From: Raillietiella orientalis
Lineage: Eukaryota
NCBI GenBank assembly: GCA_036172245.1
Contig: JAYWIR010000034.1
Coordinates: forward strand, 1,240,001-1,304,000
DNA length: 64,000 nucleotides
Direction: 5' to 3'
Position numbers and translations under genes: made by a program. Of the stretch, positions 9,801-62,910 are shown piece by piece; position 1 is the stretch's first letter, and every line of letters begins with the position of its first letter. The notes beneath the pieces were generated by a model. The model ran no database searches and was not told where the DNA came from. It saw only the letters and a program-made list of their open reading frames with translations.

Positions 9801-12062
9801 AGCCAGAGCATTTTTCACCGGTTCCTATCCGTAAGTAATACCTCCATGAGACAGATTAGAAAACATCGATAATTAATAACATGAGCCGTGATAACCGATG
9901 TATGATGGCATTCTTCCAGCACCTTTCATCCATTGAAAGAATCAGAAAGCAGAATGAAATGAAATGAAAGGGGTTTACATTCGAGGAAAAATGGAAAGCT
10001 CAATGCGGATACGCGTTGATCGGATATGAATCTCTTTTCCAGAGAAGCAGTATGCGTTGCCATTAGCGTGGCCATTGCTTCCGGGTATGTTCAGAGAACA
10101 CACACGGAAGCAATCTGTGAGAAAGTTCAACGGTGCAGGTGATATCGCATTATCACAGTGTGGGGAGGAGTCATTTCCACTAAAGAATGAATGGATTAAT
10201 TGAAGTTCTCCAAATGAAAACTGAGTTTCGTGGTTAATGATTCTTGAATGCCAAAGATTCGCACTAGAAAGAAATCGAAGTTCGTTTTCTGATCATTGGG
10301 ATACTCTGTACCAGGCGTACTGAGGAACTGCGAAAGAGACTCTTTCAGCCTTGCGATAGTGATTCAAAGCCCTCGTCCTTGTTGACTCACTATGTTTTTC
10401 TTGAAGTGAGTAGGAAGTTTGAAAGTACAGAAGGTTCGATGGTATCTTTTCTAAATAGAAATCGGTGAATGGGACCCATCATCCTGATATTCATAAAAGT
10501 TTCCTTGTTGCTAATTCAGCGATTTCATCAATGATTCATTTGATTACGTGTTCAGATGCTATGAATGACTGATGACTACCGTCTCTTGGATATTGTCTTT
10601 CCGCGTCAGTGAAATGAGCTCATCTCACTATTTTGTTTACGCGAGCACTGTTCTTCGATGAATTTGGTGTTTGGCTGATTGAGGAGTATGTTCGTGGTTG
10701 AGGCAAACTTGGGATCATCTCTTTGACCACAGAGAATCGTGTTTTATGCGATCGACATGTGCATCTGAAAATGATAAATTCTTCTACACTAGGTGTCCTA
10801 CGCAAGGGTGTGATGGATCAGGTCACGTCACAGGGAACTACTCATCCCACCGTAGCTTATCTGGATGTCCGAGAGCAAACAAAATGAAAGGGAGGTATCG
10901 AGACTGTCAGGATAACTCGGCATACAAGTAAGAAGTTTTCCTTTTAAACTGTTGAATATAGGCTTTAAATAAGGACAAAGTTACCCACACGTGATTTCTT
11001 GGTGCACGTAACTGCGTTTGCTCACGTGGCAGCTCCATTCAGAACACTTCACCCGTGATATTTTTCGGTGAATTCCACCAGCTGCGAATTAACGACGAAT
11101 AAATTTGCACGCGGTCGCATACAATCTAACATTTATCCTCGAGTTGTAATAAGGAGGGTTATAAGCATTTCATCGAGCTGTATCCCTCACTCATATATCG
11201 CTCCTTATCTTGCCGTACTATTTTTCTAATATTTAAAGCGGCATTCAATCCATATCCCAAATGTAAAAGACAGAATTGAGCAGCCATTCATCAAATTCCA
11301 AAGACAGAAATTTCTAAATTGAAATAAGAGCTCCTCTCAAAGTGAAATTTAGATCAAAGAACAAGAAATGGATTTCAAAAACAACTGAACCCTAACGAGG
11401 AACTTTAGGTACACAAACCCCAAATGGGATAACGTTAGCGTGGCAATGTGAGCAATCCGATGAGCTCTGGATAGCCACGAGTTTGTGTTTGGTGAAAGAT
11501 TCATTGTACTTTCGAATCAAGGATGATCTTGCTTCTAAAATGATGTTGACTTCTTTGTGGTCACTCAGTAAAGAAGAATACCTGATATAGTTAATTTATT
11601 TATTTTCAAAATTCACTACAATAGTCGTATGTATATATGTGTATATATATATATATATACTTCAAGTATACGTATACGACTATAGTAAATTTTGAAATCT
11701 CTATACATACTTCAAAATTTACTATGGTAAAACGGAACTATGGTATTTTATACGTAATGACACTTACGTGAGTTTCTGTGACGGAACAAAAGAAAACCTT
11801 CACTTTCATGGAACATGAAAAGAAAACAGTAGATATCTTATATATTCTTGTTCTAAAAGCTTTGAACCAGTTTAAAAGGAATTTCTGTTTTAACATGAAG
11901 AAATGAAAAAGATTTCGATCCATTTTATTAGAGTGCCGAAGGGAGCTTGAAAAGATCGTAGTGGCGTGACCTCACCGTCTGACTACATAACTACAAATTG
12001 CCCATTGAAATCAAATGTACCCTCGGAAGTGTATTTTCCTTCAAGCTGTAATTTAAGCTATC

Positions 12063-12099
<37 letters not shown>

Positions 12100-15000
12100 T
12101 TACGGAGATTTCTTGTCACCGGAGTCTCAGTGAAATTTTTGTTGTTGTTTTTAGTTCCCGAAGGAGAACTTGTGATATGAGTGAGTCACATGAAAAAGTA
12201 AGTTCGTCTACAGATGTGAAACGAAAATCAACACCTTCAGAATTACCTGTTAAATCCAAAACATTCGATTCACCACCTTTAAGCTATTTAACCAATACAT
12301 CCTATTTGGAGCCGCAAAAGGCGAGCAGTGAGTACAAACGAAAAACGTTCTCTGTAACTGCGTTTCTCCTTTCGGCGTCGAAATTGAGGGTATTTTTTTT
12401 TTCCCCGCTCTTGAACTTTGAACCCTCTTCAGGCGCAGTCTCCGTTCCAGCCATCCACTCGTTAAATATGGTCACTGTGCCGCAACTTTCCATCAGTTTA
12501 ACGAAATGAGTGTCTGTCAATACCCTTAATTTCTTTTGAATCTTTACGATTCCAGGATTTCTTTTTTCTGAGTAAAAATCAATTTTTCGTACACAATTTT
12601 ATTTGCTTTCTAACTTTGACTTTCAAGGTAAAATGTATTTTTCGTTTGCAGACAGTTTACAATCTAGAAAAAAAAAAAAAAAAAAAAAAAAACAACCCTG
12701 TAAGCTTACGTCAGAGGGGAGCTAAGAAGTACTTTACGTATATATGGATATACATATACATTTCAGTTTCAGTTCTTCAGCTGATGAGTTATTTCCCTTT
12801 TGTTCCAGCAGAGTAGCCGTAAATGTGTTGGCGTGTTTGGATGTAGACACACGTGAAACGATAAACGAAAACTGGAGTTGCAAATACGACGAAGAATGTG
12901 AAATGATTTTGGCTTTTAGGTCGGCAATAAACTGAACAGAGAGTTCACATGTTCCGGAAATCTGTATGTTCATGTAAGAAAATATATTTAAAAAAAAAAA
13001 AAAAAGAATACATAAAAACAATATGAAACCAAGCGCAATTACTATGGGAATAGAAAGAGAAACAGCTGCAGCTCGCAGATGCTTTTAGGAGCATGAAACA
13101 GGCAAAAAACAAAACAGAATACACTCAACGTGTACCTTAGTGAAGATCTCACGTATTCCGACTGGGTATGCTTGAAAGCAGAATTTCCGAATTGAGAAAT
13201 CAGATGAAGTCTTAATGTATTGTTTTTTTCATGTGAATGGAAGGTGTCGAAATAGAGCACTTGTCTCATTTTCACGAAAATACCCCCAAAGCAGCGACAG
13301 TGCTGCAATGAAACGCATCTGAGGATTGCCTCTTTCACCCTGGGACAGGAAAATTTTCCTTTCAGAACTTGCTAGAAAGCAGCGCCCTTATTTTCATATG
13401 AGACAAGGGTCACTCAATAGAGAATTTGACAGATTGTGTAATGAGGACCACGTCGCCGTTTCCGCCCTCGACTACGAGATTGCCATTGGGCGCGTCAATT
13501 ATGACCTCTGAAGTTGGATTACTTACTCTTCTATCACAATTGACAAAGCTGGATGGTCTCTGACCAAATGAATAAACTGAAAAAATTCCCATCCAATTAG
13601 ACAATAGGTAATGTAAGTTATGCTTGTTTAAGGAATGGAAGCTGCTTAGTTTCTAAGGCGAAGAGGAAATTTCCAAGAAGGATTTTTGGCAGTTCACTGA
13701 ATATGCTGAAGCTGAAGACCTGGAATCACATGGAATGCAAATCGCAGAACGATTCTCAGCCCACCGTTATTCCGTTTGTTTCAAGGAAATGCATTCAAAA
13801 TCTTAGATGTATTTTCGAATGCATGTTTTCGAAATTACAAAAGGAATATCTTCCCAATAATTTGCTTTTCGCTCCATCTTATGCCTTTCTTTAAATTTCT
13901 TGTTATTCCTTACATTTCGCAATACAAGATGGTCCGATAATTTAGCAGCAACAGAATACGGTTGCTAGAGAATCGGGACAACGTTGAATTGAAATACTTT
14001 ATTTACAAATCAGAATTCATTTACATATGCTTTCTGGTAAAGTATTGCTCAAATACGCAGAATTATTCGGATCCCACTACTGGGCTTCAATCAGTGGCGT
14101 CCGAGCCGTGACCGAGCATTTAGAAAGCGCTCTCCCTGAGTCATGGGACACCACAGCTGCGTCGTTGGTGTCGCCTATTCCTAAGGTCAAATTCAAACGG
14201 TTTTCTAGAGAGAACCATGAGTTTTCAAATATCCGAATGTCATCCTCGTGTTTCCGTCTGTACGTTGTTTTTTTCCCTCGAAGATGGAACGCCAAGTCAA
14301 CATCACTTGCATCCTCAGGTTGTCGTATTTTGCACGACCGTCAGTGTTTATAAAGCCATTTTACAAGCGAAAAGAAGTTGCCATAAGTGGGTCTGTGACA
14401 AGAGCCGAGATCTCGCAAATGACTTATGAGGGTCTATGCTACGGACAAAGTTCGGTCAAAGGCATTTTCGAAACATCCGCTGTTCTGAAAATGCTTTCCA
14501 CTGAACTTTTGGATGCAAAACGCGTTGTTCAAGTTGACTTTCTTTCACTTCACTTTTTTAATTCCTCTATCCAGCTAATGCCTCAGTTGATGATCTCATT
14601 TTTTTTATGGATTACTTAATTTTTATGTGGATGTCATACTGATTTATACAGGAATGATGGAATTACATAACATAGGAAACCAGTCCTCAAAAACATTAAC
14701 TTACATTAGATGATGATGCAGCGCCTGTTTTCCATTATATTCTTTTCATATAATGAAATAAATGCTATAACTCAATGTGCCCTCGGAGAATCGGTCTCTG
14801 TCAACAGATTCGACCAAATCGCCAACGTTACCACATCTCCACGCAAACTTCGGAGGATTTCAAGATCAAAAAGCAACACCGTTGCTAATCGGTCATCAAC
14901 AAAAAATCATGCAACAAAAACGCCTGCAGTTATTTAATTTGCATTTCTCTCCTGATTTTCAAGTGGCAATTTAATGCGGTTATGTGCTGACATTTTATCT

Positions 15001-33600: not shown

Positions 33601-34536
33601 GGTGTGAAGACTCGTGATAAGAACACTTATGATATGAAAAAAGCTATAAATGAGCTTCACATACTGCTGCAGACTCAAGAAAGAAATTTTCACTAATAAA
33701 AGTATGAAAGAAAATCAGTATAACTTTGTATAGCAAAGAAAGGAATATAATTCATAATTTATAATGAATGTATTTACAGAAATGTAATCATGCATGAATG
33801 AATGCATTTAATATCTATTTTCTAAATGAATTTTAGAAATTGTTCTAATGTTTCCAGAAATTGATTCAGCAAATAAATATCTATGGTTCTGCATATGATT
33901 AAGTACACTGCAAAAATCGCTTTTCTGCATCAAAATCACAAGACCTAAACAATATTGCACATATGTTTAAAATTCGATTAGGAGACATATTTTAGATGAT
34001 TCAATAAATGTTTCCAATATTCATACTCATTCTTTGGAGAGTGAACTGATATTCATGATAATGTCTTAAAAAAAAAAGGGAAAAATACATACTCATCCAC
34101 TAAAACATTTCCACTTGCTTCCATATTACTTCAATGCAAATATTATACCTGTTACCTTACTCTACATTCATATACCCAGAACAAAACAATTTGTATCATA
34201 CAGTTTGCATCACATTCATAAATTTTAGTCCACCAAATTAAAAGCACCTTATGAATAAAAAATTTTCCATTTACTTTTTAATTCTTTATTGTTGAATAAT
34301 TCAGATTCGCAGATTTCATCAACATCCACAATAAATATTCTTTTATCTTTACAGTAATTCAGCACAACTTTTTTCCAAATTTCGATTTGTTTCTCACGTG
34401 TAGTTTGGTTGGGCTGTATACTAAAAATAAATAGATATGTAAAAAGGCATACGTATATATATGTAATACACATATACAGATATACAGATATATATGCATA
34501 TGTGTGTATGTATGCATGCATATGTATATGTATATG

Positions 34537-35519: not shown

Positions 35520-35601
35520 GTCGTGATGGCCGAGTGGTTAAGGCGTTGGACTCGAAATCCAATGGGATTTTCCCTCACAGGTTCGAATCCTGTTCACGAC
35601 G
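35520..35601 (+). tRNA. tRNA-Ser(CGA)
   Basis: GTCGTGA/TCACGAC acceptor stem, TGGCCGAGTGG A-box, TTGGA-CT-CGA-AA-TCCAA anticodon arm, long variable arm GGGA/TCCC, GGTTCGAATCC B-box, G73, downstream TTTT. Confidence 0.97.
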
Positions 35602-42300: not shown

Positions 42301-43487
42301 AGGAAATCCTGCGTGGAAGGAGAAAGCTTTCCGAAGAGGAGCTGCTTTCATTGGACAACGTAACTGGAGAAAAAACGGAAATAATGGGGAAACAAGAAAG
42401 GGTTCGAGTTTTGAAGATAAAAGCGAGGTACTGTGCAGCTGCTCCTCCGCTTAGTAATTCCCTTTCTTCTCCTCATACGTTTCTGCTACGAAGGAGATGA
42501 CCTCGGATTCTAATGGCAAATGAAGAACGGATTTTGGATCTCATCTAAAAACTCAACAACGGACGGAGAAAACGGGGGACTCTTTGGTGCAAAAGTTTTA
42601 CATTCTTCTCCGATGATTATCTTAGCAATGTCTAACCGACATCACCTGATAACTGCGATTACATATGGCAATTACCTAATTGGATTTCACGTGACAACCC
42701 AGCTGATGACATCATCAAACGTGCATACTCAATGTTGAGTTTCAATTTTATCTGTGGTTTGTCATGATGCTTGAATCGGAAGTCGAATCTCGAAATTCAA
42801 TTTCCTATTCGTTGACCGTCAAGCCGTCTTCTCCAGGCATTGTGATCTCTCGATTTTTTTGCACGATTCGCCAATGTCCCCATAGCAGACGAGGCTTGCA
42901 AAAGGGAAACAGCCCTATTCCGTTGTCACCTCTGCCCGAGCTAAGGAAAAGTGGCACTCGAATGGCCACTGTATGGAAGCTGCTCTATTGCTCTCGAGTC
43001 TCCCTGTCATTCTGGCTCGAGGATTTCGTGATCGGCAAACACCGTCATGATGTGATGGCATGCCAATAATTTAGAGGGTGTTTAGCAGCAAGGAGATTGC
43101 AAGTGGAGATTTTTCGAATGGTGAATATAGCAATCTGTTTAGCAATTTTGCAAAATTTACGGAGGCACACTTTCATTTTTGCCCTAAAGCTGCCTACTCT
43201 CATCTCCAACACAAATAACCGTGTTCGCGTGCAGATGCAGAGTTGGCGTGCACTCTGCATGTAAAAGTGAGAGTCCGCCTTGTACTACGAGCTGTTCTTC
43301 CCGGAACGAATCGTGCACGACCGATTCAATGGCTTCACGGCTGGGCGACAGGGATAAAGCTGCCTCTCGTCTGGGAAACCAGCGCTGCCGGCACCTCTCC
43401 CTCTCCTCCCGTTGTCCCCGTGCAAACCCTTTCCTCCCCTCCGCGGGAGGAAAACGGAACTCTTCGTTAACGCGAACAAAAATCAAC

Positions 43488-43579
43488 TTCCCCAGGTGAG
43501 GCTCGAACTCACAACCCCGGCATAACTCACGGCGACTGCCTTATAAGTACCGTGCGCTAACCAATTGCGCCACTGGGGA
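43488..43579 (-). tRNA. tRNA-Ile(TAT) with 18-nt intron (43524-43541)
   Basis: TCCCCAGTGGCGCAATTGGTTAGCGCACGGTACTTATA[AGGCAGTCGCCGTGAGTT]ATGCCGGGGTTGTGAGTTCGAGCCTCACCTGGGGAA, with the intron at the canonical 37/38 position and a TTTTT terminator downstream. Confidence 0.95.
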
Positions 43580-44183
43580 ACTGAATCCGAAACCTTTAAA
43601 TAGTACACATATAGTTGGTCTCAATATGTGATATGGCATGATAACATGGCAAAATAAGCCTCAAATGTTAATGATCCTAACTTAGTCGAGGTATACCTCA
43701 GATAGTGAAAACAATTTGTCGTTTTTGGTCCTTTTCCGTTTCAACCGAGAAGCACTTGGAAAAGTTTTTTTTTTTTTTTGAAAAAGGAAAAGCATTATGC
43801 AATTGTTGTGCGCAAACACAGTTGTATGTGATGATACATTGACCTGCTCCGAAAAGGCGTGCAATCGATGGAAATTGGTGACAAATTATAAGAGAAATAA
43901 AGCATTCATGATGAAATGAGATTGTTGTATTCAGCTGCATATTTTGAAGTTGCTTTCAGATTATGAGATATTGATCCTAGTGTATTTGGAGATCGGAATC
44001 GATTTGCTATGTTGTACTTTAATGCATTAAGAAGAAATTACTATTTATGATTTTCCTCAGTATTTTCTTCGAATTATGTTGTGATGTACTTTCTGATATT
44101 TATTATTTGTACATTCGATATTTTTTAAAATTAATTTGAAACTGATGGTTCTGTATCTGTTTTCATAGTAAGTTACTTACAAT

Positions 44184-45530
44184 ATGAATAATGCTTTAGA
44201 AGCAATCAGAAATGGACTTACCTTTCGAGAAGCTCAACGGCTGTTTAATATTAATAAACATGAATTGGAAAAGTATTGGAATGAATACAAGAAAGATAAT
44301 AGTCATTTAAATAATAATTTGTGTGATGACAAAAAATATGACAGCAACAGCATTGCTTCAAATTGTCATGATGTATTGACAGAATTGACAGAAGTGGAAG
44401 AGAGTATCCTTGCTGATTATCTCAATTATGTGATTTCTCATGGATTCCCATTTTGCAAGGAAGTCATTGAGTTTTACATTAAGGAACTTGGATTCGTTAA
44501 GGATTCCTCATCAGTTAAATTTTCTTTGAATGAAGGATGGCTAGAAAGATTCCTTAATCAATATAATTTCCCCATAAACATTTGTGATAGCATAGAAGAA
44601 GCAAGGAAACAGATGTCATGCAAAAGCTCTTTAAAAAGATTTTTCGCATTGCTAAAAAAAAATCTAGAAACTTATAACTTGTTTGATAAGCAGTCTCAAA
44701 TATGGTTTAGTGAGGAAAATAGTTTTGAAGATAGGATGCATGAAAAATTTGATTTTGGTGTTGGCTTCAAGCACACTTATTTGAAAGAAGTGATGAATAA
44801 AGAAAAGATTGTAATAAATTTATCTTTGAATGCATCTGGAAAAATGTTGCCACCAATGATAGTTTTTGGCGAATTGAAAGAGGATCCTAATATGTTTTCA
44901 GGTCCTAAGCAATCTCTTTATGCATTTTGCAACAAAGGATTTGATGATATTGAACTTTGTCATCAGTGGTTCAGGCACTTTTTGCATTTTGCAAGTGAGG
45001 AACGCCCATTGTTATTAATTCAAGATCAAATGAGCTTTCATCTTGCTCCAAGTATCATTGATGTTGCAAAAAAAAACGACATAATACTATTATTTCTGCC
45101 CCTTCACTGTCATCCCATTCTTAGACCATTAGATATTTCCTTATTTATACAGACTGCAACAGTTTCTTCAGATTCTAGCTTTTGTTCAGTTTTAAGAGAA
45201 GCTTTTACTTCAATAACTCCAGAAATAATTGTGCATGGTTTCCGTAAAAATGGAATCTTTCCTTATGATCCCACACAAGTGAATCTGAACAATGTATTTA
45301 AAGTTCTTGATGAAAACCCTGTTGGTGAAAGTGAACTAAAAAAACCAAAGTTGTTACATAAACAGTTGGTTCCCACTGCTTTGCAGAATGGTAAAGATGT
45401 GTCTGACTCAGAAACAAAAGGGAGCTTTTTGAAGAATACTCAATGTAATATGGATTCTGAGATAAAATCCGATTTTACATCAGAAGATGAAGGAAAATCA
45501 AAAAACCAAACTAGTATGGAAATTTTCTAA
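44184..45530 (+). CDS. pogo/Tigger (HTH-psq + CENP-B HTH + DDE_1)-derived protein, probably domesticated
   Basis: Intact 448-aa ORF: ALEAIRNGLTFREAQRLFNI (psq HTH), LTEVEESILADY..GFP..GWLERFL (CENP-B HTH), NASGKMLPPMIVF, RPLLLIQDQMSFH, LFLPLHCHPILRPLD. The first catalytic motif (NxDET) reads WFSEENS. No flanking TIRs seen; AATAAA at 45630. Confidence 0.85.
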   Translation: MNNALEAIRNGLTFREAQRLFNINKHELEKYWNEYKKDNSHLNNNLCDDKKYDSNSIASNCHDVLTELTEVEESILADYLNYVISHGFPFCKEVIEFYIKELGFVKDSSSVKFSLNEGWLERFLNQYNFPINICDSIEEARKQMSCKSSLKRFFALLKKNLETYNLFDKQSQIWFSEENSFEDRMHEKFDFGVGFKHTYLKEVMNKEKIVINLSLNASGKMLPPMIVFGELKEDPNMFSGPKQSLYAFCNKGFDDIELCHQWFRHFLHFASEERPLLLIQDQMSFHLAPSIIDVAKKNDIILLFLPLHCHPILRPLDISLFIQTATVSSDSSFCSVLREAFTSITPEIIVHGFRKNGIFPYDPTQVNLNNVFKVLDENPVGESELKKPKLLHKQLVPTALQNGKDVSDSETKGSFLKNTQCNMDSEIKSDFTSEDEGKSKNQTSMEIF

Positions 45531-45825
45531 CAGTCATATTTTCTCATATATGTATTTGCACACAAAGTATGTTTAATAATTAAAACTATTAAGTGCAATG
45601 GTTAATCATATTCGCAAATTTATATATTTAATAAAGCATAATTATTTTCTTGACTTTTTGTTCACATAGTTTGCTGTTTGAGAAACTTTCATGTAATTAT
45701 TTTTTTTTTAAATCATTGCAATTAAAGTAAAGACAAACATGCAAATGTTTTGCATGCTGAATGTACTATGTAACAAATTAAATGCATATAGCCTTGCATA
45801 TTGTCATGTTTGGCCTATGCTATAG

Positions 45826-47193
45826 GGGCACGCAAAAGAAGAAAAAGAGGTCCAAGTGGATCATCTCATGTTGCATCACGTGCAGTTAATCATGACCATG
45901 CTTCCAAATCCAAATTAGAAAAGTTTGAATCTAGTCCTGAGTCTTTGTATCAACAACAATCTTTCAAAGAAATGCTTAAACAGTATCCTTGCCATCAGAT
46001 TGACAAAGACAATAAAACAACTTATGAAGATGTTCTTCTATACACATACAACCGTGTGTGTACTCTCAAGTGGTTAATTGATGCTAATCTAATAGCTGAA
46101 AGTAGAAAATGTGAAATTTGTGAACAAGAGATGGATTTGCAAGCAGTAAAACAGGATTCCACCTGGCAAGATGGCTTTGTTTGGGCATGCAGAAAGTAAT
46201 TTTCATTCTCCTGATCGCAGCTGTCTTGACTTATCTGATTTGTTTTTCTTTTATAAAAATATGGAACAATTTTACTTGTTGATTTGGTTTGATTTCAGAA
46301 TGCTGTATTCTATCATTTCAGAATTGCAGATAAATCACATTATATTTGTGACATCCGAAAGGGATCATGGTTGCAAAACAAGAATATCAGTTTGGAAAAG
46401 AGCATCCGTCTCACCTACATGTGGTGTACAGGTTATCCACAGGTAAACACAACATAGTAATTTTTGTCACTCATTTATATTTTGTATAGGATCTTATCCG
46501 CCATGAGTTACAGCTTCCAGCTTCCATTTGTGTTACGTGGGCTCGTCTGTGCCGTGAATATGCAGCTGATATCTGCACTAAAAGCGAAGAGATGCTGGGT
46601 GGAGAAACCACTGTCGTGGAAGTTGATCTATTGCAGGTATCAGCCAGGATGTCTGACAATGGAATAATTGAAGTAAGTGTTGATACTTGGTAACAGTATA
46701 AACTCTTTTTAGCCAGAACAATTTGTTATTGGCGGTAGTGATGTCAAGAGCCAAACAGTATTTTTGACACCACTTATTCATGATAATAGCAAAGTTATTT
46801 CCGATATTCTTAAATCATGGCTCAAGAAGGGCACTGCAATTTTCCCAGGTAATCATTTTGGTACTTTTTTTTTCTCATGTGACATTTTCCTAAGTTGGTT
46901 GGAACCATGCTGAGAAACTTGATGAGGAAGCACTAGATATGCTGGTTCATCAATACAATTTTCACTTTCTCACACAGAGTGAATACTTGAAACAGTTTGC
47001 ATCTCCTTCTAATTGGTTGCATACAAAAACAGCCCTGTTTGCCAAAGGCTCTGTGAAGGAAGAGTATTATTGGGCATATTTTGGAGAATTTTTATGGAGA
47101 CGACAGTGTCAGCAGCAAGATAAATTCCAACAATTTGTGCAACACATTGCCCAAGTGTTTCATGGTGATTTCTTGGAAGACAAGATGACATAG
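45826..47193 (+). CDS. Spliced Merlin/IS1595 (ISXO2)-like transposase-derived protein, catalytically inactive; 5' end unresolved
   Basis: Exons 45826-46195, 46322-46442, 46490-46672, 46713-46848 and 46895-47193 are joined by four frame-preserving GT-AG introns (126, 47, 40 and 46 nt). Motifs: CEIC..DGFVWACR..IRKGSW, LCREY..LGGETTVVEVD, QFVIGG, WLKKGTAIF, YFGEFLWRR..DKFQQFVQHIA. Confidence 0.85.
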
Positions 47194-50762: not shown

Positions 50763-51468
50763 ATGCTCGTCTCAAAAGCATACGTATATGTGTTAGTTGC
50801 CCTGATAGAAGTACGTTATTCTGTCGAAAGTATTTATTCTTTAAGTGCCATGTCAATAGATGGCGAATTAATAGAAATGAAAAAATTTTATGGCAAGGTA
50901 TGGTATTTGTTCTCTAAGCACGAAATTAAATGTACACTGCAGGTTTCTTTGATAGTTAATACTGCAAGCCAGTGCAGTTTTGCAGATTCTCACTACCGTG
51001 ATTTGAAGAGGCTTCAAGACATCCTAGAATTTGGAGATTATTTCAATGTACTTGGATTTCCTTGCAATCAGTTTGGAGAGCAAGAACCCTTAGAAAATGA
51101 AGATATTTCTGAATTTCTTCGTACGCATTATTTGATTGATTTTCCATTGTTCAGCAAAATTGATGTAGTAGGGTCAACTGCCCATCCTATCTTTCGACAA
51201 CTTTATGGTAAAAACTGTTGACTCATTTCAAGTAAACAATGAAATTGCAGAACAGACATCAGTAGCTCCTGAATGGAATTTTTATAAATATTTAGTGAAC
51301 CATGAAGGACATGCTACTAATGTCTGGGGACCAAAAATACCAGTGAGTGACATATTTGAATCTGTGGACAATGCTATACGTGTAGCCAAATCAGCAAACT
51401 TAACGGTTCCAATAATTCAGAGTGAAAACCACGTTCCAATTACATTTTCAAGTCGAGAAGAACTATAG
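50763..51468 (+). CDS. GPX7: Cys-type glutathione peroxidase, GPx7-like (ER)
   Basis: Exons 50763-50897, 50943-51207 and 51251-51468. Hydrophobic signal peptide, VNTASQC (Cys, TGC), LGFPCNQFGEQEP, FSKIDVVG, PEWNFYKYLV and a C-terminal REEL ER-retention motif. Confidence 0.92.
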
Positions 51469-53326: not shown

Positions 53327-54679
53327 CTCTGCTACAGTTTATAAAAGCCGCAAAATTGCGAAATTTGCACACCGTTCCATAAATGGCGACTTTTGCTGCA
53401 CAAACACGTGCATCAGACGCGAACTGAATCCCCTCTGATTGGACCGATCAAACATTTGGAAATTCCAACTTATTTTATACATACGTCCGTACATTTAAAA
53501 ACATACATACCTCATGCTTTCCCGGTGCGAGGTGCTTTGTGCTGGGGAAGCTGTTCTCCAGTTAATTATCGATTGGGAATGGGTTTATTATTAGGAGAAA
53601 GGGCAAGGCGTTGATGACTTATCTCGAGCAACCGTAAGTTGCCCACAAATGGAAAAATCTGCCACCAAGGTACCAAGGTTTCATTTCATTTCCTAGCTCT
53701 GCACTTGGGAATTGTCACTTTATTCTGCCTTCGACCTACAGCACTCTTGATAAACAAGTGTAGAAGGATGCAAATCGGTGCATTTCCTGTCCTCCACGCT
53801 ATGCAGTTTTCAATTGGATTGACCTTTCGATCCGCCTTGTGTTTTTACAGGGAGGTTTCTGGAAAACAGGTTAGGGCGATCGAGATTTTTCAAAAATCTC
53901 ACTGCCCTTCGATCTGTTACAGTTGCAAAGTAGGATTCACGGCTGAGCAATTACTACTCTTACAAGACAAACAGCAAAATTAAGAACGAATGCAAAGCAT
54001 GCTGTTTCTGGAAGGCAAACATGATTTCCTTTACATGAAATGAGTGCATATAGTTTTATTTCCTTTTTAATTTCCTGTGTTGTACGCTCTTCGTCATGTA
54101 CTCATCCCAAGTATTAGACACGTAACGTGTATGGCTTCATGAAGAATCGAAAGGAAGGAGGCGACAGGACAGGAGTCATGTCTTTCAATGATGCTTTGTG
54201 GCAGAAAGGTTTTCCAAAGTGCAGGCTACGATTCCGAGCTCTCCTAGGCAAGGAAATGAGAAAGGAACATACTCCAATGTTTGCCTAACACTTTATGCAT
54301 CCCATTCTGCCGAACGAGTTTGTGCAGTTCTCTTGGAATACAAGGCCTGCTGAGAGATGTACGCCAATTTCTAGGACTATTGTCACTGGTAATGGAAGCC
54401 CCAATGCACATATAGTTCGTAAATCATAAATGGATCCAGAACTTGTCGTAGTGAAAAGAAAAAGAAATGAAAAGAAATCCTTAATAATAATTTGTTAGGA
54501 AGCTGAAAACTGTTCTTTTTTCTCTTCAAAACAGTCAATTGCCATATTCCGCAACACTCCAATACCCTGTAACAGCAAAGCTCAAACTATCATCCAACGC
54601 ACCCTTTAAAAAAAAAAGAAGAAGCAATTCTTTATCTACTGCAATAATTCTTTTTTGATGCAAATTCTTCCGTATCGCT

Positions 54680-55690
54680 CTAGCTCGAGTGCAGATATGT
54701 CATGAATGCGACCGGGAGGCCCAAGCGCTCCAGGAGTTCCAGAAGAAGCTCCTGGTTAACGCAATCGAATGCTTTGTACAAGAGGACTAGGACCTCAAGG
54801 GTTACCAATCCGGCCCAACCTAACCCCCTCTGACCGAGGAATTCCGGATGCCAATCTTGCCCGCTCCATGTTGGTGCTCTAACCATAGTTAGCGTAGAAC
54901 AGGTTGGAATCCGTACTTCTCTCGGAAATAGCGTAAGACTGCTCCGGGCTTACGGAGCAGACAAGCTACTTCAAACAGCCAGGTCTGGCGCTCGGCCCTC
55001 GCCTTGCACTCCGCGAGGCGCCGGACGTTCTCTCGCATGGAGAAAGTTCAGGCCTGCTACTCTTTGCCATGCCTTCTCCGAAGCCGCGCGGAGCCAGGCG
55101 CAAAGGAAACCGGCAGCAGAGCTCGCGGACCGATCTCTTCAGATCGTCCCAGTCCGAGAGCACACGTATAGCAAAGCCCCGGAGGAACTGACGAGGATGT
55201 TTTGTCAACTCCGAGTGGCTAAGCCAGTCTGCTGGCCTCCTCCAAACGTTGTTCGGAGGTCTATTGCCCGGTGGGAGAATCTTGAACTCCAGGTTGGGAT
55301 GGTCGGAGAGCACGGACAGCCCACTACCCACTAGGGTGAGCAGGTGTTCGTCGAGGAACACGTAGTCCGGCAACCCCTGCATCCCAGGTTCGCCAGCAAG
55401 TAGGTTTTGCGTGTGCACGGACGCGCATACCTCGCTCACCGGCTGCTTTTCCCTCAGGTGGGAAGTAGGTGGACCCCTGCATCGCGTGTGCCACACTGGG
55501 GCCGGAGTCGGCGAGTCATTGACTCTGCAGGCCAACGAGGAACTGGATGTCGGAGGAGCGTTCTCTCAGCGTACCGTGCACCCCCGTGCGTCGCGCGTAT
55601 ATGTTCGTGACGACGGGGTTGATCGATTCGGACACAAGTTGAGCACAAGTTGGGTCATTCGACCTTCCTCGTCGAACGAACGTTGTGGAG
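54680..55690 (-). mobile_element. Tx1/L1-like LINE fragments (AP endonuclease C-terminal half and an RT piece), decayed
   Basis: APE-like motifs DEEGRM..VVTNIYA, PDYVFL..VLSDH..W..WDDLK. The RT piece KAFDCVNQELLLELLERLGLP (54680-54780) is paralogous to ~59033-59100. Confidence 0.7.
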
Positions 55691-56345
55691 CACCCCTTGG
55701 TGTGTTTCGGCCGCCTCCTCGCCAGACGTGTATCCGGAACGGGAGGACTTGCATCTCATCTTTTATGCTGTGGAAAGAAGATAAGAAGATGTGGCCTTCT
55801 CCTCGGACACATAGCCACCCTGGCGAAGGAGAATGGGTGGATGATCTGCAGCCCCGTCAACTCCAGCGCATGGCTGGAAGAAACAGTTGGAACGTGGGCG
55901 AAGTTAAACCAGTCAAGTGGTGAATCCTGGAACCGCCTGCGACCCGGCATCTATACCCGCTGCACGCCGTGGAACATGATCGAGTGTCCTGCCAGAAGCA
56001 CGTGGGCAGCGACGACCCCACTGACCACGGCGCTGCCCTACCTGAGGAGGGCGCTCGGCAGCAGCCGGACGCCGAGGTGGCAAGTCTTATTCCGGATAGC
56101 GGGCAAGGAGAAGGAGTTAAGTGGGTGGACCATGAGGGAACTGGCTGACGCCGCGACCCCAAGCGTTCTCCCGCGAGGAATCCAGAGATGGGGCGAGCTG
56201 CTGGGCATCCCGCTGGATGACCTAAAGTGGCCCCCGTTATTTAGAGACGCATCCACCCTCCCCCTCAAGTGGCAGGAAACGGCGCTGCTGTTGTTGCACT
56301 GGGGTCTTCCCTGCAACGCGCGCCGCCACCACTGGACGTTGGGGA
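55690..56345 (+). mobile_element. Tx1/L1-like ORF2 C-terminal fragment (separate copy)
   Basis: The translation (ENGWMIC..AWLEETVGTWAKLN..WTMRELADAATPS..RWGELLGI..LPLKWQETALLLLHWGL) aligns with ~59870-60530. Confidence 0.75.
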
Positions 56346-56537
56346 ACGTGGGACAGAAGGTTTCGGCGAAGGATTAAGGAATGACGGCGCGTACCTACAC
56401 GCCCGTCCCCACTCCAGGAATCCAGACGTCCGACGCCTGGAGGAATATAAAGCTGGGGCTGAGAGACAGGCCTGGCAATCCGGGTCGGCCAGCTTGCTGG
56501 ACGCGCAAGGCCGAGAGTGCTCAGCCCCAGCACAGGT

Positions 56538-57805
56538 TTTTATTTAAGAAAATTTGATTACAATGAATACATTTGCAGGAGGGCTTTAACTTCTCTCCTT
56601 ATCTTTCAACCGGGCTCATGGATATAGATGGCTTATGGGAGTTCCCTCTGTTCTGGCATCTTGGATAGGGCGTCGTCTGGAAGATGCCCTAATCGATGCG
56701 TCCAGTAGATGTCCCTGCTGTATTGGATACATGATGCGACCATCAGCTTGCGCGATCGGTCGCAATAACGACGGGGGATTCTCAGTTCCTTGAGAACTGC
56801 ATCATTCTTTGGATCCCAAGATCCAAGAGAGCCAACCAAGATGGCACGGGCTTCCGCGCTGCATCCAATTCTTCTATAGAATTGGACGATGTCCTGGTAC
56901 TTGTCCTCTTTATCCCTTCTTGTTGTAATGAAGGCGTCCTCCTTGTTCTCAAATGGACAAGATATTTCCAGGAAAACGACCGAATTAGCCTTTTGCAAGA
57001 CTAAATCCGGCCGCAGCGTGCTAAATCCTTCTACTGTCTGGTTTGCAGACAAAAGCTTCCATTCTGCGACGTCTATTGCTGCATTCTTCATTCGTCGCAC
57101 TATTTCATCATAGCGTGCTGTATAGACACGAGAGTGCCTCATGCAGTGATTAAGTACATGAGGCAGCGTCTCATCTCGGAGGTTACACCTCCTACAGCTT
57201 CTTTCCGCTGGAGGTCTCCTCTTCACACCACGAATGGGTACGAGATTCAACCTCGCGGCATGGATGAAGCGGTAATCTGCAAAACGCAGATATTCTCCGT
57301 TGTTTAGAAAATAGCTGGATGCACGATGCAATCCTACACATCGCATGCCTTTCCCTTGGTCAATGTGCTTTTCAATAAGGTCAAGCCATGCCTGATGTCT
57401 TTGGGCATCGCGAATCGCAGCAGTGATTCTCCTGCGCATCGACGTATCAAAATTTAGGTCCATTATCTGGAGTTTAACATCTTGATCTTCAAAACTCCAT
57501 TTTGCATGCATCTGGGAAGATGCTAGGCGATCAGTGGTCCAGAGACTCTTGATATCTCCACTGGCCCTTGAGAATTTGCCTGAGCAATCTCCAGTCATAA
57601 ATCTTGCCATGTCTTCTTCCGTGGGTAGTTGCAGAATTCTTTTCTGCACTACCTCCCGTAGGGAGTCCTTGGCAAGATGTTTGACCGTTTCATCGGGAGA
57701 TGTGAGGAGCTTAAAGCAACTGTCGATCATGAAGGTGTCCGCTTCATCTAACAGTCGCATCAGCTCCATACATCCCATTGATCTTAGCCAAAAGGCCGAG
57801 AAGCG
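56538..57805 (-). mobile_element. 5'-truncated NeSL/Utopia-like (R2 group, RLE) non-LTR retrotransposon with 11-bp TSD
   Basis: Open 381-aa ORF 57778-56633: LRFADYRFIHAARLNL, CRRC..ETLPHVLNHC, RYDEI, RPDLV, EISCPFEN, KEDKY, VGSLGSW. The 3' end is AAATAAAAA. The TSD CCAGCACAGGT lies at 56527-56537 and 57806-57816. Confidence 0.9.
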
Positions 57806-58455
57806 CCAGCACAGGTGAGCCTCATCTTGCAGGATCTTAACTCCTCTTTATACGCGCGAAGAACAATAGAGCACGCCTTTGCGCAGCGATTGCTGCCGGA
57901 GGGAGCCCGCGCGTTGAAGGAGCAGGATCGCCATCAACTGCAGGAGCCTCTCTCGATGGAGGAGATCATATCTGCCATCGGAATGCTCAAGAAACGTAAG
58001 GCACCAGGGGAAGATGGCCTGCCCGCAGAGTTCTACCAACGCTTCGCGGTGGTAGAACTGGTGCACAAACTCTGCATGCTGATTCGAGAACAAGGGGACG
58101 TCCCCATGTCGTTCCGGTCAGGTAAATTACGTCTCCTGCCGAAAGGAGGAGACTCTCGCAACCTAGGCAACTGGCGTCCCATCATAGTAGTGAATGCGGA
58201 TGCGAAGTTGCTTGCCAAACTTTGGGCTGAGCGACTGGGGCAGGTGGCGGATTCCGTGGCGAGTCCGGAGCAGACGTACGCTGTTCCAGGACGATCCAAA
58301 GAGGCCAACCTCTTCCTCGCCAGTACATGGTGGCAGTTGCAACAACGCGAAGCATAGGGAGGTCAAGAGAATCCTGGATTCTCCTCTGACCAGGGAGGGG
58401 AAGTCCTTGGTGGAAGAGCCGCGCTCGGAGCGGTGGATTTGCGTAAAGCTTTCGA

Positions 58456-59031
58456 TTTTCACCCGGGTTTTGCCGAGGCGTTTATTATTACAACAAACTT
58501 TAACAAAGATGTGCTGTGGCTGGACCAGTGCTCCAACCACGCACGAAGAAACACAGAGCCTTCCGGGTCAACGGTTCGCAGACCGGTACGGTCCACAACG
58601 GCAGCAGGGAGAAGGGAGGATAAACAAAAAGCTAAACAAAATGAAAAGAAAACGCGGGAGAGTATGGGAAGGGATCACTGTTGCTGCTGGGACCGTTGCA
58701 TCCTTCTCAGGATTCCGGCAAGCTCTCTCTGCATTCGTGGATCCAGATGGGGTCATCGCGACGCCCTCTTCAAAAATTCGGCGGCATGCTGGATGGCACC
58801 CTTATCGCGAGCTCCTCCCGTAGCCTTGCTCCAAGCGGCGCCGATCCCGCGAAGGCAGCACAGGGCTGCTAACGAGACCGCAGACCGAAGGGCGTCGGCA
58901 ACGAAGAGGGCTTTCAAAGCGTCCCTGGGATTGCCGCAGGGGATTCCGATGGCCGCGAAGTAGCCAAAGGGGCCAAAGGGTAACACAATCCACAAGTAGG
59001 TGGGGGAGGGACTCCCGTTCCCCCTCAATTA
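58456..59031 (-). mobile_element. 3' fragment of a related Tx1-like LINE inserted into the host KAFD motif, 6-bp TSD
   Basis: TTTCGA at 58450-58455 and 59032-59037. It encodes HLLVDC..LCCLRGI..ELAGILRRMQRSQQQQ*, homologous to the host C-terminus, and ends AATAAACGCCTCGGCAAAACCCGGGTGAAAA. Confidence 0.85.
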
Positions 59032-60750
59032 TTTCGACTGCGTCGACCAAGAACTCCTTCTGGAGCTCCTGGAACGCTTGGGATTTCCGGACGTCTTTCT
59101 GGCTTACCTGCGCTCCTGCTGGAGCTTCGCGCTAATTAACATTACTTTCAGCGGTCGGCACGTATACGGCGTGCCGCTTCGCCGCAGCATAAGGCAGGGT
59201 GATAGTCTGAGCCTCCTGCTCTTTAGCATCTACTTCGAGTTGGTGCTGAAAGCATACGAGGAGACTCTGGCAACCCTCCCGAGCTCGTGTTCCGGCAGGC
59301 CTGCCGTGTCCGGCCTATGCCGACGACCTTCTGCTCCTGCTCCTCGGGTCCACCCCAGCATCGGCGCTCGAAGGTTTCTTTGAGCGCGCGGGACGGGTCT
59401 GGAGGTGAACAGTGAGAAATCTTCAATACTTCCATCGAATACGTCGTGGGGCGGACGGCCAGATTGGATCCGCTTGGGGATCCCCACGGTCAGTTACATC
59501 CAGTACTTTGGCGTTCCGTTGGAGGACTTCTGCGTTGCAGAAGCCTGATCCGACCGCCTCCAAAAAGTGGAATTGGCGATCGGCCCATTCCAGAACGGCA
59601 AGTTTTATTTGCCGGAACCGGCCGCGGTGTGGAGCGCTTTCTCAGCCCCCCTCCTTCGTCCTCTACTTTTTGTTTGCCCCCTTCCACCGATCTTGCAAAA
59701 AAGGACCGAGGTCCTCCTAAGAAAAGCCCTCTGGGGCAGATGAGGGTCCCGTGTCTGCTTGAAAGACATGTGCGCTTCACGCAGGGGCGGTGGATTGGGC
59801 CTTCTAACGCTGGAGCGCATGGAGCTGCGGCTCCAATTCAGAAGACTCTCCATTGCGGCGAAGTTTTGGACTACACCTTGGTATGCAAACCCGCACGACT
59901 CCTCACCAGCAGAGCGACCGGCTGCGAAGGATTGTCCTCGATCATCCTGGCCTACCAGCGCAACCTCAACAACTGTGGCCATCAGCTGCGCCAGATGGTC
60001 GCCCTGATGAGGGAGAATAACTGGATCCCCTGCCTCCCCGCGAACTGCACTGCCTGGCTTCAGGAGTCAGTTTTTGCGTGGGCGAAGATCAACGGCACGA
60101 GCAAGGCGGAGTACAACTGTCTCCGTCGAGGACCCAACGCTCGACGGCCCCTGCAGGAGATAATCAACAACCCACGGAAGTTTCTGTGGATTTCTTTGAC
60201 CCCACTTGCCCCCGTGCTGTCCTCCCTCAAGAACACTAGGAACAGCAACGAGCGAGCATTATGGGAAGTGTCCTGCCTCATCCGAGACAGGAGAAAACCG
60301 TTGAAGACGTGGACGACTCGGGAGCTAGCGGACGCTGCGACCCCGAGCATCCCGTCTAAAGGACTTGTGCGCTGGAGCGAGCTGCTCGGCATACTCCGGA
60401 GGAGGTGAAGTGGCCCCCAGCGTGTTGGGATAGTCTCACGCTCTCCTTGGAATGGCAGGAGATGGCTCTGCTGGTGTTCCATTGGGGACTCCTTTGCAAA
60501 GCACGCCTCCCCCACTGGACATTAGGGAGTGTGGATGCCAATTGTGTAGGGTGCGGGGAACGGTAGACCTTTCTCCACCTCATCATCGAGTGTGTTGCCC
60601 TTCGACCTATGTGGAATCGACTGTCGTCGATTTTGGACATTCCCGTGGGCGACCCGAAGGACACTTTCCGTCGCCTCCTGATGCAGAACGCGCTGCCAGC
60701 AGCCGCGTGTGTAGCAGTTCTCTGCTGCATACGCGGGATCCTGGAGAAGT

Positions 60751-60965
60751 TTTTCACCCGGTCACGCCGGGGCGTTTATTGAAAATAAACCGGTCAAAGA
60801 CGATGTCCTTAACCAAAGAAACGACAAGGAGCAAAGAGAAGTTACCGGCACACAGGCCTGGTTAACAAACCGCTTCCAACAACACTGAGGGAGTAGAGGG
60901 ATAACACACACAAAAAAAAAAAAAAAATCTGGAGGGAGGGGTAACGGGTCTTTGGTGAAGCTCCG
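60751..60965 (-). mobile_element. 3'-UTR-only insertion of a related Tx1-like LINE, 9-bp TSD
   Basis: TGGAGAAGT at 60742-60750 and 60966-60974. It ends AATAAACGCCCCGGCGTGACCGGGTGAAAA, and the host ORF (..RGILEK|WTASRR..) resumes after removal. Confidence 0.85.
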
Positions 60966-62910
60966 TGGAGAAGTGGACTGCGTCAAGGAGAGGCCGCAGC
61001 AGTCGGAATGCCATTCACTGGGCGGCTCTCAACATTGAGAGAGCTTCCCGATGGCCCCGGTTAAGAAGATTACGTCCAGCACTTGTCCGCATCCTGAATA
61101 GGATGCAGAGGACCACTCGGGGCGAACAGTGATCCTTTTTCAGCCCTCCCCTTCTCTGAAACATCTCCCTCCCCTTGGTTTTTGTTTGATTTTTTTGTTT
61201 TTCTTTGTGTTTTTCCCTTCCCTATCGCCTCCAGAGAGGACCTCAGCGGCCTGCGGGCCGGCAGCGGCAAGTGTGTCAAGACAGGCAGAACCACGTGTTC
61301 TGCTGCACATAATTATAAGACTTTATTGTGGAATTTTCATCATAAAAATTTTAATAATAAATTCCCCGTGATATCCGGGTGATAAACATCAGGGGGCGTT
61401 CCGTTTGCTGCCGCGGCCATGGCAACGGCAGCGAAACTTCTCAACGTTGGCGAGGCAGAACCAGAAGAGGCATGCATCTTTTTCGGCGGAGAACCGGCAT
61501 AGGAGACTGCTTCCTCCACTTTTATTACTTCCTGTGTGGACCCATTTTTTATGAAAAATGATGCAAAACACACACAAGGAAAAACGGAAATTCGAACACT
61601 CAAGCAAAGCGACACCAATACACGTCTGCACTCGCTGCTGCGTGATAATCGAACGCATGGTTCTCCTGCCAAGTTGTATATTGAAACTTTCAAGAATAAA
61701 CAAAAAAAAAAAGTAATTAAAGAATGCTGTTTAGGACACCAGTTCTTGCCCAAGTCCGAAGAATTCTGGATGAGCTGGAGACAAGTCTGGTGACTTGCCA
61801 GTGAGGTCCACCTCAGAGAAGTAGGGGGAGTGTCAAATAAAGAAAAAAAAAAGTATGCACCCTTTCATGTGGGGAGCAGAGTAAAAGCGGAAGAGTTATC
61901 AGTCTTGCTCCAGGGTTCTCTGCATCCCATATAGGATGCTGATGGGTTCCATTTTCGAATTCGTTAGGTAAGGTAATCAGTCAGAATTTCTGAAACCGGG
62001 CACACCAGATAACCAAAGCCTCAAGATGCCAACTCTGGGTTTTGGCGATAGTATGGAAGATTCGAGCTTTCAGTTTACTCACAAGTGAGCATCCTAGTTC
62101 ATCAGCCCTGGTACCTTTTTTCTAGACGCCAATACTTCAAATCAGTTCCCTAATTTAAAATTGGACAGCTGTCTGATGCATCCCATGTCATTCTGTTTGT
62201 TCCATTCTTCTCTGTGTCGAATGTCATTTGTGCAAGCAGTTCCAAGTTACTTTTCTGTTTCTGGGGCTCACTACATGAGTCCAATGGACTGCTACTGCTG
62301 GTCATCCTGCTCTTTATCAGATGCGCTATTCATCTTCCCAGTCGTGCGGAAATGATTTGCAATGGCTGCAAGGTAGCGCCTGAGACTGCAATTTGGATCA
62401 GTGTAGAGAAAAATGAGAGATAACGAGTACACAGAGAACAGCGAAGCAAGACAGGTGAACAAAATAAATAAACGAATAACAATTCCACCTGACTCTGATT
62501 CGTGCTCTTGCATGTGAGTTACAATGCAAATCATTTAACGACTGCTCTTGTCAAACTTGCCTGAAGAAAGAGGTGGAAGCAAATCAAAGTCGTGGAAAAT
62601 CTGAAAATGGACATGTAAACGTCCAACTTGTAAAAGGGGACCACCGATATGATTCCGCACTCATTTCTGAGCCTCGCATACCATGCAGTGATAAGGCAGG
62701 CAGCTAATTTTTGTCGTGTTTGTGAATGTTTTAGCGCAGCCAAAGCTGCATCTATCTTGGATTCCCAATCCATTTTGATTTCTCGACGTGTCTCCTGAAT
62801 GAACTTCACAACTGTTGGAGAAATCGCACCTTAAGAATCTTTGAAAAGCAGCTCGGTGAACGAAGTGGGAACCAAAGCACGCGTGCACCCTTGGAATCAC
62901 TTCAAATCTC

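Follow-up and report, generated by a model that had tools for sequence, protein, structure and literature searches.

Adjacent pogo-type and Merlin-type transposase-derived units in a Raillietiella orientalis contig and the question of their fusion

The 64,000-nucleotide (nt) stretch of Raillietiella orientalis contig JAYWIR010000034.1 analysed here (positions 1,240,001 to 1,304,000 of the forward strand, assembly GCA_036172245.1), hereafter the window and the reference for all coordinates below, contains two units related to transposases of different superfamilies, a pogo-type open reading frame (ORF) and a five-exon Merlin/IS1595-type unit, which are located on the same (+) strand 300 bases apart, in DNA of 31-35% guanine plus cytosine (G+C). 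Judged by its sequence, the Merlin-type unit is certainly a catalytically dead Merlin derivative, and both units are probably immobilised, exapted transposase genes. Our tentative preference is to read them as two separate, adjacent transposase-derived genes, whose products have probably been recruited to bind DNA or chromatin in the nucleus rather than to transpose. The original prediction had joined them into a single spliced chimeric protein; this is not supported, given candidate splice donors that occur at chance level, an alternative start for the Merlin-type unit, a coding-like tail of the pogo-type ORF, and the lack of a relative carrying both modules.

As two neighbouring genes, the upstream one would encode, from a single exon, a pogo-type protein of 448 amino acids (aa) with two N-terminal helix-turn-helix (HTH) motifs and an RNase-H-type core, and would terminate at its own stop (45530), the AATAAA at 45630 serving as poly(A) signal. 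The gene downstream of it would encode a Merlin/IS1595-type protein that retains its CxxC block at the N-terminus and all of the sequence that defines the fold, but would be unable to cut DNA. Its translation would start at ATG 45739 in a 31-nt exon that ends at 45769 and is followed by an intron of 56 nt, giving a protein of approximately 379 aa with the basic run RKRRKR near its N-terminus, or, less likely, at Met 45972, giving a 320-aa product. In this reading the choice of start site, independent transcription of the two genes and DNA binding by their products are inferences.

The pogo-type and Merlin-type units

The features of the pogo-type unit are as follows.

44184..45530, + strand: pogo-type ORF, intronless, 448 codons from the ATG at 44184 plus a TAA stop (45528-45530)
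44184..44276, + strand: HTH_psq domain, residues 1-31 (Pfam E 5.4e-5, 23.3 bits versus a cut-off of 20.4)
44391..44570, + strand: weak Tc5/CENP-B-type HTH (HTH_Tnp_Tc5), residues 70-129 (E 0.011, 16.2 bits, under the cut-off of 22.2)
44799..45146, + strand: DDE_1 core, residues 206-321 (29.3 bits versus a cut-off of 22; profile positions 1-123 of 177 only)
45024-45026 and 45132-45134, + strand: codons of D281 and D317, with 35 residues between them
45630..45635, + strand: AATAAA hexamer 100 nt past the pogo stop, followed by T/GT-rich sequence; possible poly(A) site of a pogo-only mRNA

An in-frame TAA is located four codons 5' of the ATG. The domain composition proposed originally is borne out by Pfam for HTH_psq and DDE_1, while HTH_Tnp_Tc5 stays under its cut-off and DDE_Tnp_IS1595 was found on none of the five Merlin-type exons. 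The proposal that the catalytic motifs of both units are altered applies in part to the pogo-type protein: D281 and D317 are present, and at what we take to be the position of the first Asp, placed by a motif and not by alignment, the sequence reads Glu-Glu (E177/E178, 44712-44717). In the pogo literature, the triad is given as DDxD with 29-59 residues separating the last two Asp, and a DD35D signature is described for several pogo families, with which the 35 residues between D281 and D317 agree (PMC7386202).

Among protein-language-model clusters (Atlas), the closest to the pogo-type ORF consist of stand-alone pogo-type DDE_1 proteins (scores 0.93-0.95, 182-207 shared features). The representatives listed measure 385-602 aa, and the six rows that share the make-up of two HTHs and DDE_1 measure 442-513 aa, so that the ORF has the length of a complete stand-alone pogo transposase. 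No match to the ORF was obtained in a word-based protein search at near lengths (4673 candidates), among PDB sequences at E<=1, or in a metagenome scan, and an AlphaFold2 single-sequence model was unusable (mean predicted local distance difference test score 37.6). Fifteen nucleotides upstream of the ATG lies a good acceptor-like site, ctgttttcatag (ttttcatag at 44168, within 44150-44183), and the 5' leader of the pogo mRNA may be spliced or trans-spliced.

The Merlin-type unit extends from 45826 to 47193 and comprises the following exons.

45826..46195, + strand: exon 1, preceded by the acceptor tatag (45824-45825), with the RKRRKR run, 48 codons ahead of the first Met (45972), and the CxxC...WxC block
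46322..46442, + strand: exon 2, flanked by GT-AG introns of 126 and 47 nt
46490..46672, + strand: exon 3, for which 46636 is an alternative donor; the first catalytic Asp (VEVD) is codon 46625-46627
46713..46848, + strand: exon 4, whose final base opens a split codon (46848 + 46895-46896)
46895..47193, + strand: exon 5, with the Pro codon 47005-47007 and a TAG stop (47191-47193)

The exons are separated by four canonical GT-AG introns of 126, 47, 40 (76 with donor 46636) and 46 nt, all eight splice sites are intact, and the frame is stop-free from the acceptor at 45825/6 to the TAG. The longer form of exon 3, with its donor after 46672, is favoured because it restores the spacing of the Tubulanus relatives in the alignment. 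Downstream of the stop, AATAAA hexamers are found at 47298 and 47377. The elements on which the original prediction was built are present as described, namely the phase-1 acceptor TATAG/GG at 45825/6, the RKRRKR run within 48 open codons, the first Met at 45972, phase-1 GTs at 45390/1 and 45513/4 whose joins are both stop-free, the AATAAA at 45630, and intact frames in both units.

The Merlin identity of this unit is indirect, being based on the relatives of exon 1, on a cluster assignment and on a collinear alignment. Scanned singly rather than joined, none of the five exons matched PF12762 in Pfam at E<=1, and none matched the IS1595-type NCBIfam families. A HMMER search with exon 1 against 1.84 billion representatives gave eight matches at E<=1e-3 (best 6e-6, none at 1e-10), the closest 28-48% identical; five of them, from krill and a nemertean, carry DDE_Tnp_IS1595 (PF12762), and the other three are two short unnamed fragments and one unrelated repeat protein. 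The closest Atlas cluster of the last exon (score 0.95, 190 shared features) has PF12762 on 34% of its members and is to be taken as a lead only. In a MAFFT alignment the spliced model is collinear with full Merlin transposases, including those of Tubulanus, from the CxxC block to the C-terminus. Together these results give indirect support to the Merlin/ISXO2-like identity originally proposed. A word-based protein search with exon 1 at longer lengths returned no match among 74 candidates, and a metagenome scan with the same exon yielded one contig of 59% G+C (L001) with the CxxC block alone and no pogo match, which was judged uninformative.

In the MAFFT alignment the Asp-Asp-Glu triad (DDE) of the Merlin transposases reads D-V-P: the first Asp is retained, the second is replaced by Val and the Glu by Pro. 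With two of the three catalytic residues lost, the Merlin-type protein, as predicted, would be unable to act as a DDE transposase, and for this unit the alteration of the catalytic motif is thus confirmed by alignment.

Each of the krill proteins P0001, P0002, P0004 and P0005 (902-1687 aa) aligns with exon 1 or with the Merlin profile at two or three distinct places. Full Merlin-like krill units entered the alignment, two from P0001 and one from P0005, and in these the second catalytic Asp is Lys. These long proteins have the appearance of tandem element copies that gene prediction has run together. They were considered as pogo-Merlin fusions and rejected, as they carry Merlin domains alone in apparently tandem copies.

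Active pogo elements are bounded by terminal inverted repeats (TIRs) and a TA target-site duplication, which are absent in domesticated genes, and Merlin/IS1595 elements have TIRs, a target-site duplication of 8-9 bp and multiple copies. No inverted repeats above chance flank the pogo-type unit (best score reached by 151 of 200 dinucleotide shuffles), the Merlin-type unit (175 of 200) or the pair (66 of 200). Within the window, tblastn and blastn found no second copy or fragment of either unit, other matches having E values of at least 1.1, and the blastn matches elsewhere consist of T-runs only. A multi-copy element with TIRs, named at the outset as the finding that would speak against a host gene, was thus not encountered in the 64 kb.

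The two units together maintain approximately 820 stop-free codons (448 and some 370) where approximately 8% of random codons are stops, which is beyond chance; the low identity of exon 1 to its closest relatives (28-48%) suggests that the units are old enough for unselected frames to have decayed. The simplest reading is that selection keeps both frames open. Domestication of both units, as originally proposed, is a reasonable reading in view of the intact frames, the dead Merlin triad, the lack of TIRs and the gene-like exon-intron structure.

One transcript or two

Whether the units form one gene depends on how Merlin exon 1 begins. Its acceptor (45825/45826) is in phase 1 and requires one base from an upstream exon. 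The Merlin frame is open from 45792, which gives 60 stop-free codons before Met 45972, a modestly unusual length (open in 202 of 5000 dinucleotide shuffles; of the window's 1685 other ATGs, 4.5% are preceded by as many open codons). Codon usage was examined by a log-likelihood ratio (LLR) test trained on the rest of both genes versus neighbouring non-coding DNA. The 48 codons ahead of the Met score +5.3, a value reached by 0.04% of 5000 random and 0.9% of 1500 stop-free background segments, and the segment holds three out-of-frame ATGs (45868, 45892 and 45898). By these measures it is probably translated, which makes a start codon further upstream likely and agrees with the upstream coding exon originally postulated. 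Its peptide is no more similar to the relatives' N-termini than shuffled sequences are (29 of 300 reach the best case). The first block conserved with the relatives is reached 14 residues past Met 45972, and the 320-aa product would retain every conserved block.

The candidate upstream sequences, scored as donors on a generic matrix on which the Merlin-type gene's own donors range from -0.97 to 4.14, are as follows.

45390..45392, + strand: donor ATG/GTAAAG, score 1.49; 771-aa fusion with a 435-nt intron
45444..45446, + strand: donor AAT/GTAATA, absent from the original prediction, score -2.79; 789-aa fusion with a 381-nt intron
45513..45515, + strand: donor CTA/GTATGG, score -0.01; 812-aa fusion with a 312-nt intron
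45739..45769, + strand: alternative first coding exon of 31 nt, whose ATGs lie at 45739, 45745 and 45754 and whose phase-1 donor TAT/GTAACA follows 45769; 56-nt intron to 45825

The pogo-type ORF contains 21 phase-1 GTs in its 448 codons, where approximately 24 are expected, and three of them are located within the last 46 codons. The tail of the ORF (45393-45527) is open in only 127 of 5000 shuffles and has an LLR of +8.0, matched by 0.13% of 1500 stop-free background segments; from this openness and codon usage, translation seems to continue to the pogo stop. Donor 45513 is the sole candidate that lets nearly the whole tail be coding. The 31-nt exon leads to stop-free products of 374-379 aa, and its 56-nt intron lies within the size range of the Merlin-type gene's introns, with a GTAA-type donor like the gene's others. 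Further ATG-initiated open segments with phase-1 GTs are found in 43580-44183 (donor scores -0.58 to -8.2). An AATAAA hexamer such as that at 45630 is estimated to occur by chance approximately 0.5 times per 300 nt of such composition. Overlapping the start of the 31-nt exon is a near-palindrome, CATGCAAATGTTTTGCATG (45738-45757), which contains ATGCAAAT, presumably the octamer motif, and could be either a promoter element of the Merlin-type unit or a product of chance in AT-rich DNA.

The preference for two genes is tentative, and several points weigh against it. The translated-looking codons before Met 45972 and the three out-of-frame ATGs count against a start at that Met and force reliance on the 31-nt exon, whose weak donor scores -3.4 on the generic matrix and whose 10 codons give no coding signal (LLR -0.6). 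Roughly 100 nt, from the pogo poly(A) signal to 45739, would have to accommodate a promoter. That two transposase genes should have been preserved independently on one strand, with 300 bp between them, would be an unlikely coincidence, which a fusion would explain, and selection on either gene is deduced from open frames alone, in DNA of low G+C content. A start codon supplied by a spliced leader, as in flatworm leaders, was considered for the Merlin-type unit and rejected on frame, since the exon needs one extra base.

A single chimeric gene is possible, although we consider it doubtful. One of the phase-1 donors near the end of the pogo ORF (45513/4, 45444/5 or 45390/1) would be spliced to 45825/6 as the main or an alternative form, giving a product of 771-812 aa with the pogo HTHs and a degenerate core, a disordered basic linker and a dead Merlin module, next to a pogo-only isoform ended at 45630; it would have arisen by transposase capture, when a pogo gene, by then domesticated, captured by splicing a Merlin element inserted 300 bp downstream. 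Such a gene would account for two dead transposases being preserved side by side, and for an exon 1 that is open and coding-like ahead of its first Met, with out-of-frame ATGs that are awkward for a 5' untranslated region and make an upstream coding exon likely; all three donor joins are stop-free, and the score of the 45390 donor falls inside the range of the gene's own donors. The frame-compatible GTs, however, occur at chance density, and the intron required (312-435 nt) is long compared with about 40-126 nt for the other four. As the tail past 45390 and 45444 is coding-like, the donor at 45513, with a score of -0.01, is the sole constitutive one left, and the pogo ORF is of full stand-alone length with a plausible poly(A) site. 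None of the eight HMMER relatives of exon 1 has a pogo domain, a weak argument given that the species' own lineage is seemingly missing from the collections; the peptide ahead of the Met does not resemble the relatives' N-termini more than shuffles do, and a self-contained start in the 31-nt exon fits equally well.

That the units are unselected relics, two transposon insertions in a permissive spot that have not yet acquired stops, with the Merlin-type copy from a non-autonomous lineage and its splice sites the element's own, is unlikely. Catalytically altered lineages do circulate, as some krill Merlin copies likewise lack the second Asp, and public annotations hold mosaic pogo-like/Merlin-like gene models (RUS88033.1 and PSN37908.1, rows of supplement file 2 of PMC8101967). 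The length of the open frames relative to the stop frequency of random codons speaks against relics, as do the intactness of every splice site, the lack of TIRs and of any other copy or fragment in the window, and the divergence of exon 1, at which unselected frames should have decayed. Less probable still is another kind of linkage, either an operon-like pair trans-spliced at 45825/6 (perhaps also at 44168) or a larger gene in which the pogo ORF is intronic. The AATAAA at 45630 is separated by approximately 190 nt from the acceptor, acceptor-like sites are located just 5' of both coding units, and 43580-44183 offers open segments that could serve as upstream exons. After trans-splicing at 45826, however, the first three AUGs would be out of frame; Rfam at its gathering threshold found two tRNAs only and no spliced-leader RNA family in the window, the opposite-strand tRNA-Ile gene at 43487-43580 restricts the space upstream, and the upstream donors score poorly. 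On balance, two neighbouring genes remain the reading that we favour with reserve.

Genes and repeats surrounding the locus

Host exons were recognised by Pfam on both sides of the locus and on both strands of the window, in a scan of 114 of the 197 ORFs (stop to stop, 75 aa or longer) that the window contains apart from the locus. Together with the RNA genes and the longest ORFs of a G+C-rich block, they are as follows.

10.7 kb: zf-C2HC exon (Pfam scan)
23.3-25.2 kb: guanylate kinase exon (Pfam scan)
34.3-34.6 kb: ESCRT-II exon (Pfam scan)
35520-35601, + strand: tRNA-Ser(CGA) gene (Rfam, gathering threshold)
43487-43580, - strand: tRNA-Ile(TAT) gene (Rfam, gathering threshold)
50829-51206, + strand: glutathione peroxidase (GSHPx) exon, Cys-type (Pfam; GPx7-like by NCBIfam)
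51.9-52.1 kb: AIRS_C exon (Pfam scan)
56636-57847, - strand: 404-aa ORF inside the G+C-rich block
59416-60405, + strand: 330-aa ORF inside the G+C-rich block

The tRNA-Ile(TAT) gene measures approximately 92-94 nt, which leaves room for an intron, and is located at the edge of a G+C-richer stretch approximately 600 bp 5' of the pogo ATG; 8 kb further upstream is the tRNA-Ser(CGA) gene. The glutathione peroxidase exon encodes Cys at the presumed active-site position, with no TGA codon there. Its best match in the protein collection is only 46% identical, which suggests that the source lineage is absent from, or poorly represented in, public protein sets. The block at 54000-61000 has 51-57% G+C and many long overlapping ORFs on both strands, and no Pfam family was found in it at E<=1e-4 in the scan of window ORFs; it looks like retroelement remains. 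Microsatellite-like runs are found at 34252-34400 ((TA/CA)-type, translated as YIYIYI) and at 12057-12100 ((GT)n, translated as CVCVCV).

Comparison with known transposase-derived genes

No described pogo-Merlin gene was found in the full-text literature, in which the preprint bioRxiv 10.1101/2020.05.07.082677 was covered in its main text; neither 'Merlin' nor 'pogo' occurs there. A survey of Merlin elements mentions chimeras in general terms and names one WD40 case (PMC8101967). As two separate genes, the units would amount to an ordinary pair derived from transposons. Merlin exaptation has so far only been suggested, from a few protist and animal cases, and a spliced, intron-bearing, dead Merlin gene at a gene-dense animal locus would be a clear example of it. 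A true chimera would mean one nuclear protein with DNA-binding modules from two unrelated transposon superfamilies.

Each unit taken alone has counterparts. The vertebrate genes domesticated from pogo include TIGD2-7, JRK, JRKL, CENPB, POGK and POGZ, and they resemble the pogo-type unit in deriving from a complete pogo transposase, in keeping the HTHs and DDE_1, in lacking TIRs and in having a triad that is partly altered or unrecognisable (PMC7386202). The unit described here differs from them in having HTH_psq and a weak Tc5 motif instead of CENP-B_N, and the word-based search returned no relative of it. Sequences related to Merlin in Spironucleus and elsewhere that have been proposed as domesticated are likewise preserved without TIRs or target-site duplications (PMC8101967). 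Those Spironucleus-type cases keep the DDE motif, whereas this locus reads D-V-P and has four introns; the word 'intron' never occurs in the main text of that survey (PMC8101967).

Proteins with both domain types also exist in annotations. In the conserved-domain search rows of supplement file 2 of PMC8101967, RUS88033.1 of Elysia chlorotica and PSN37908.1 of Blattella germanica carry HTH_psq together with DDE_Tnp_IS1595; neither is among the HMMER matches of exon 1. Inspected by eye, the Elysia protein appears to comprise an N-terminal pogo fragment without the core, followed by a duplicated, unrelated stretch of approximately 500 aa and by a Merlin core that is truncated and reads EIDES, and in the Blattella protein the order of the modules appears reversed. 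The Elysia mosaic was considered as an orthologue or counterpart of the locus and rejected on this inspection, being a patchwork whose Merlin core still looks catalytic.

The closest model for a fused gene is transposase capture, by which KRABINER and 93 other host-transposase fusions are reported to have arisen. In that work, the capture site was the acceptor immediately upstream of the transposase frame in eight of nine traced fusions, and young fusions coexist with the parental transcript (bioRxiv 10.1101/2020.05.07.082677). At the present locus an acceptor is found at 45824-45825 with the Merlin frame open back to it, the arrangement by which such capture is recognised. If the two units share one transcript, transposase capture would extend to a capturing host gene that is itself a former transposase, and the locus would provide a simple model for assembling multi-module DNA-binding regulators from mobile elements. 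It is distinguished from the KRABINER-type fusions by this transposase-derived upstream partner and by being known from genomic sequence alone, and it resembles them in the acceptor directly 5' of the transposase frame, the upstream gene on the same strand and the possible alternative splicing versus the parental transcript (bioRxiv 10.1101/2020.05.07.082677).

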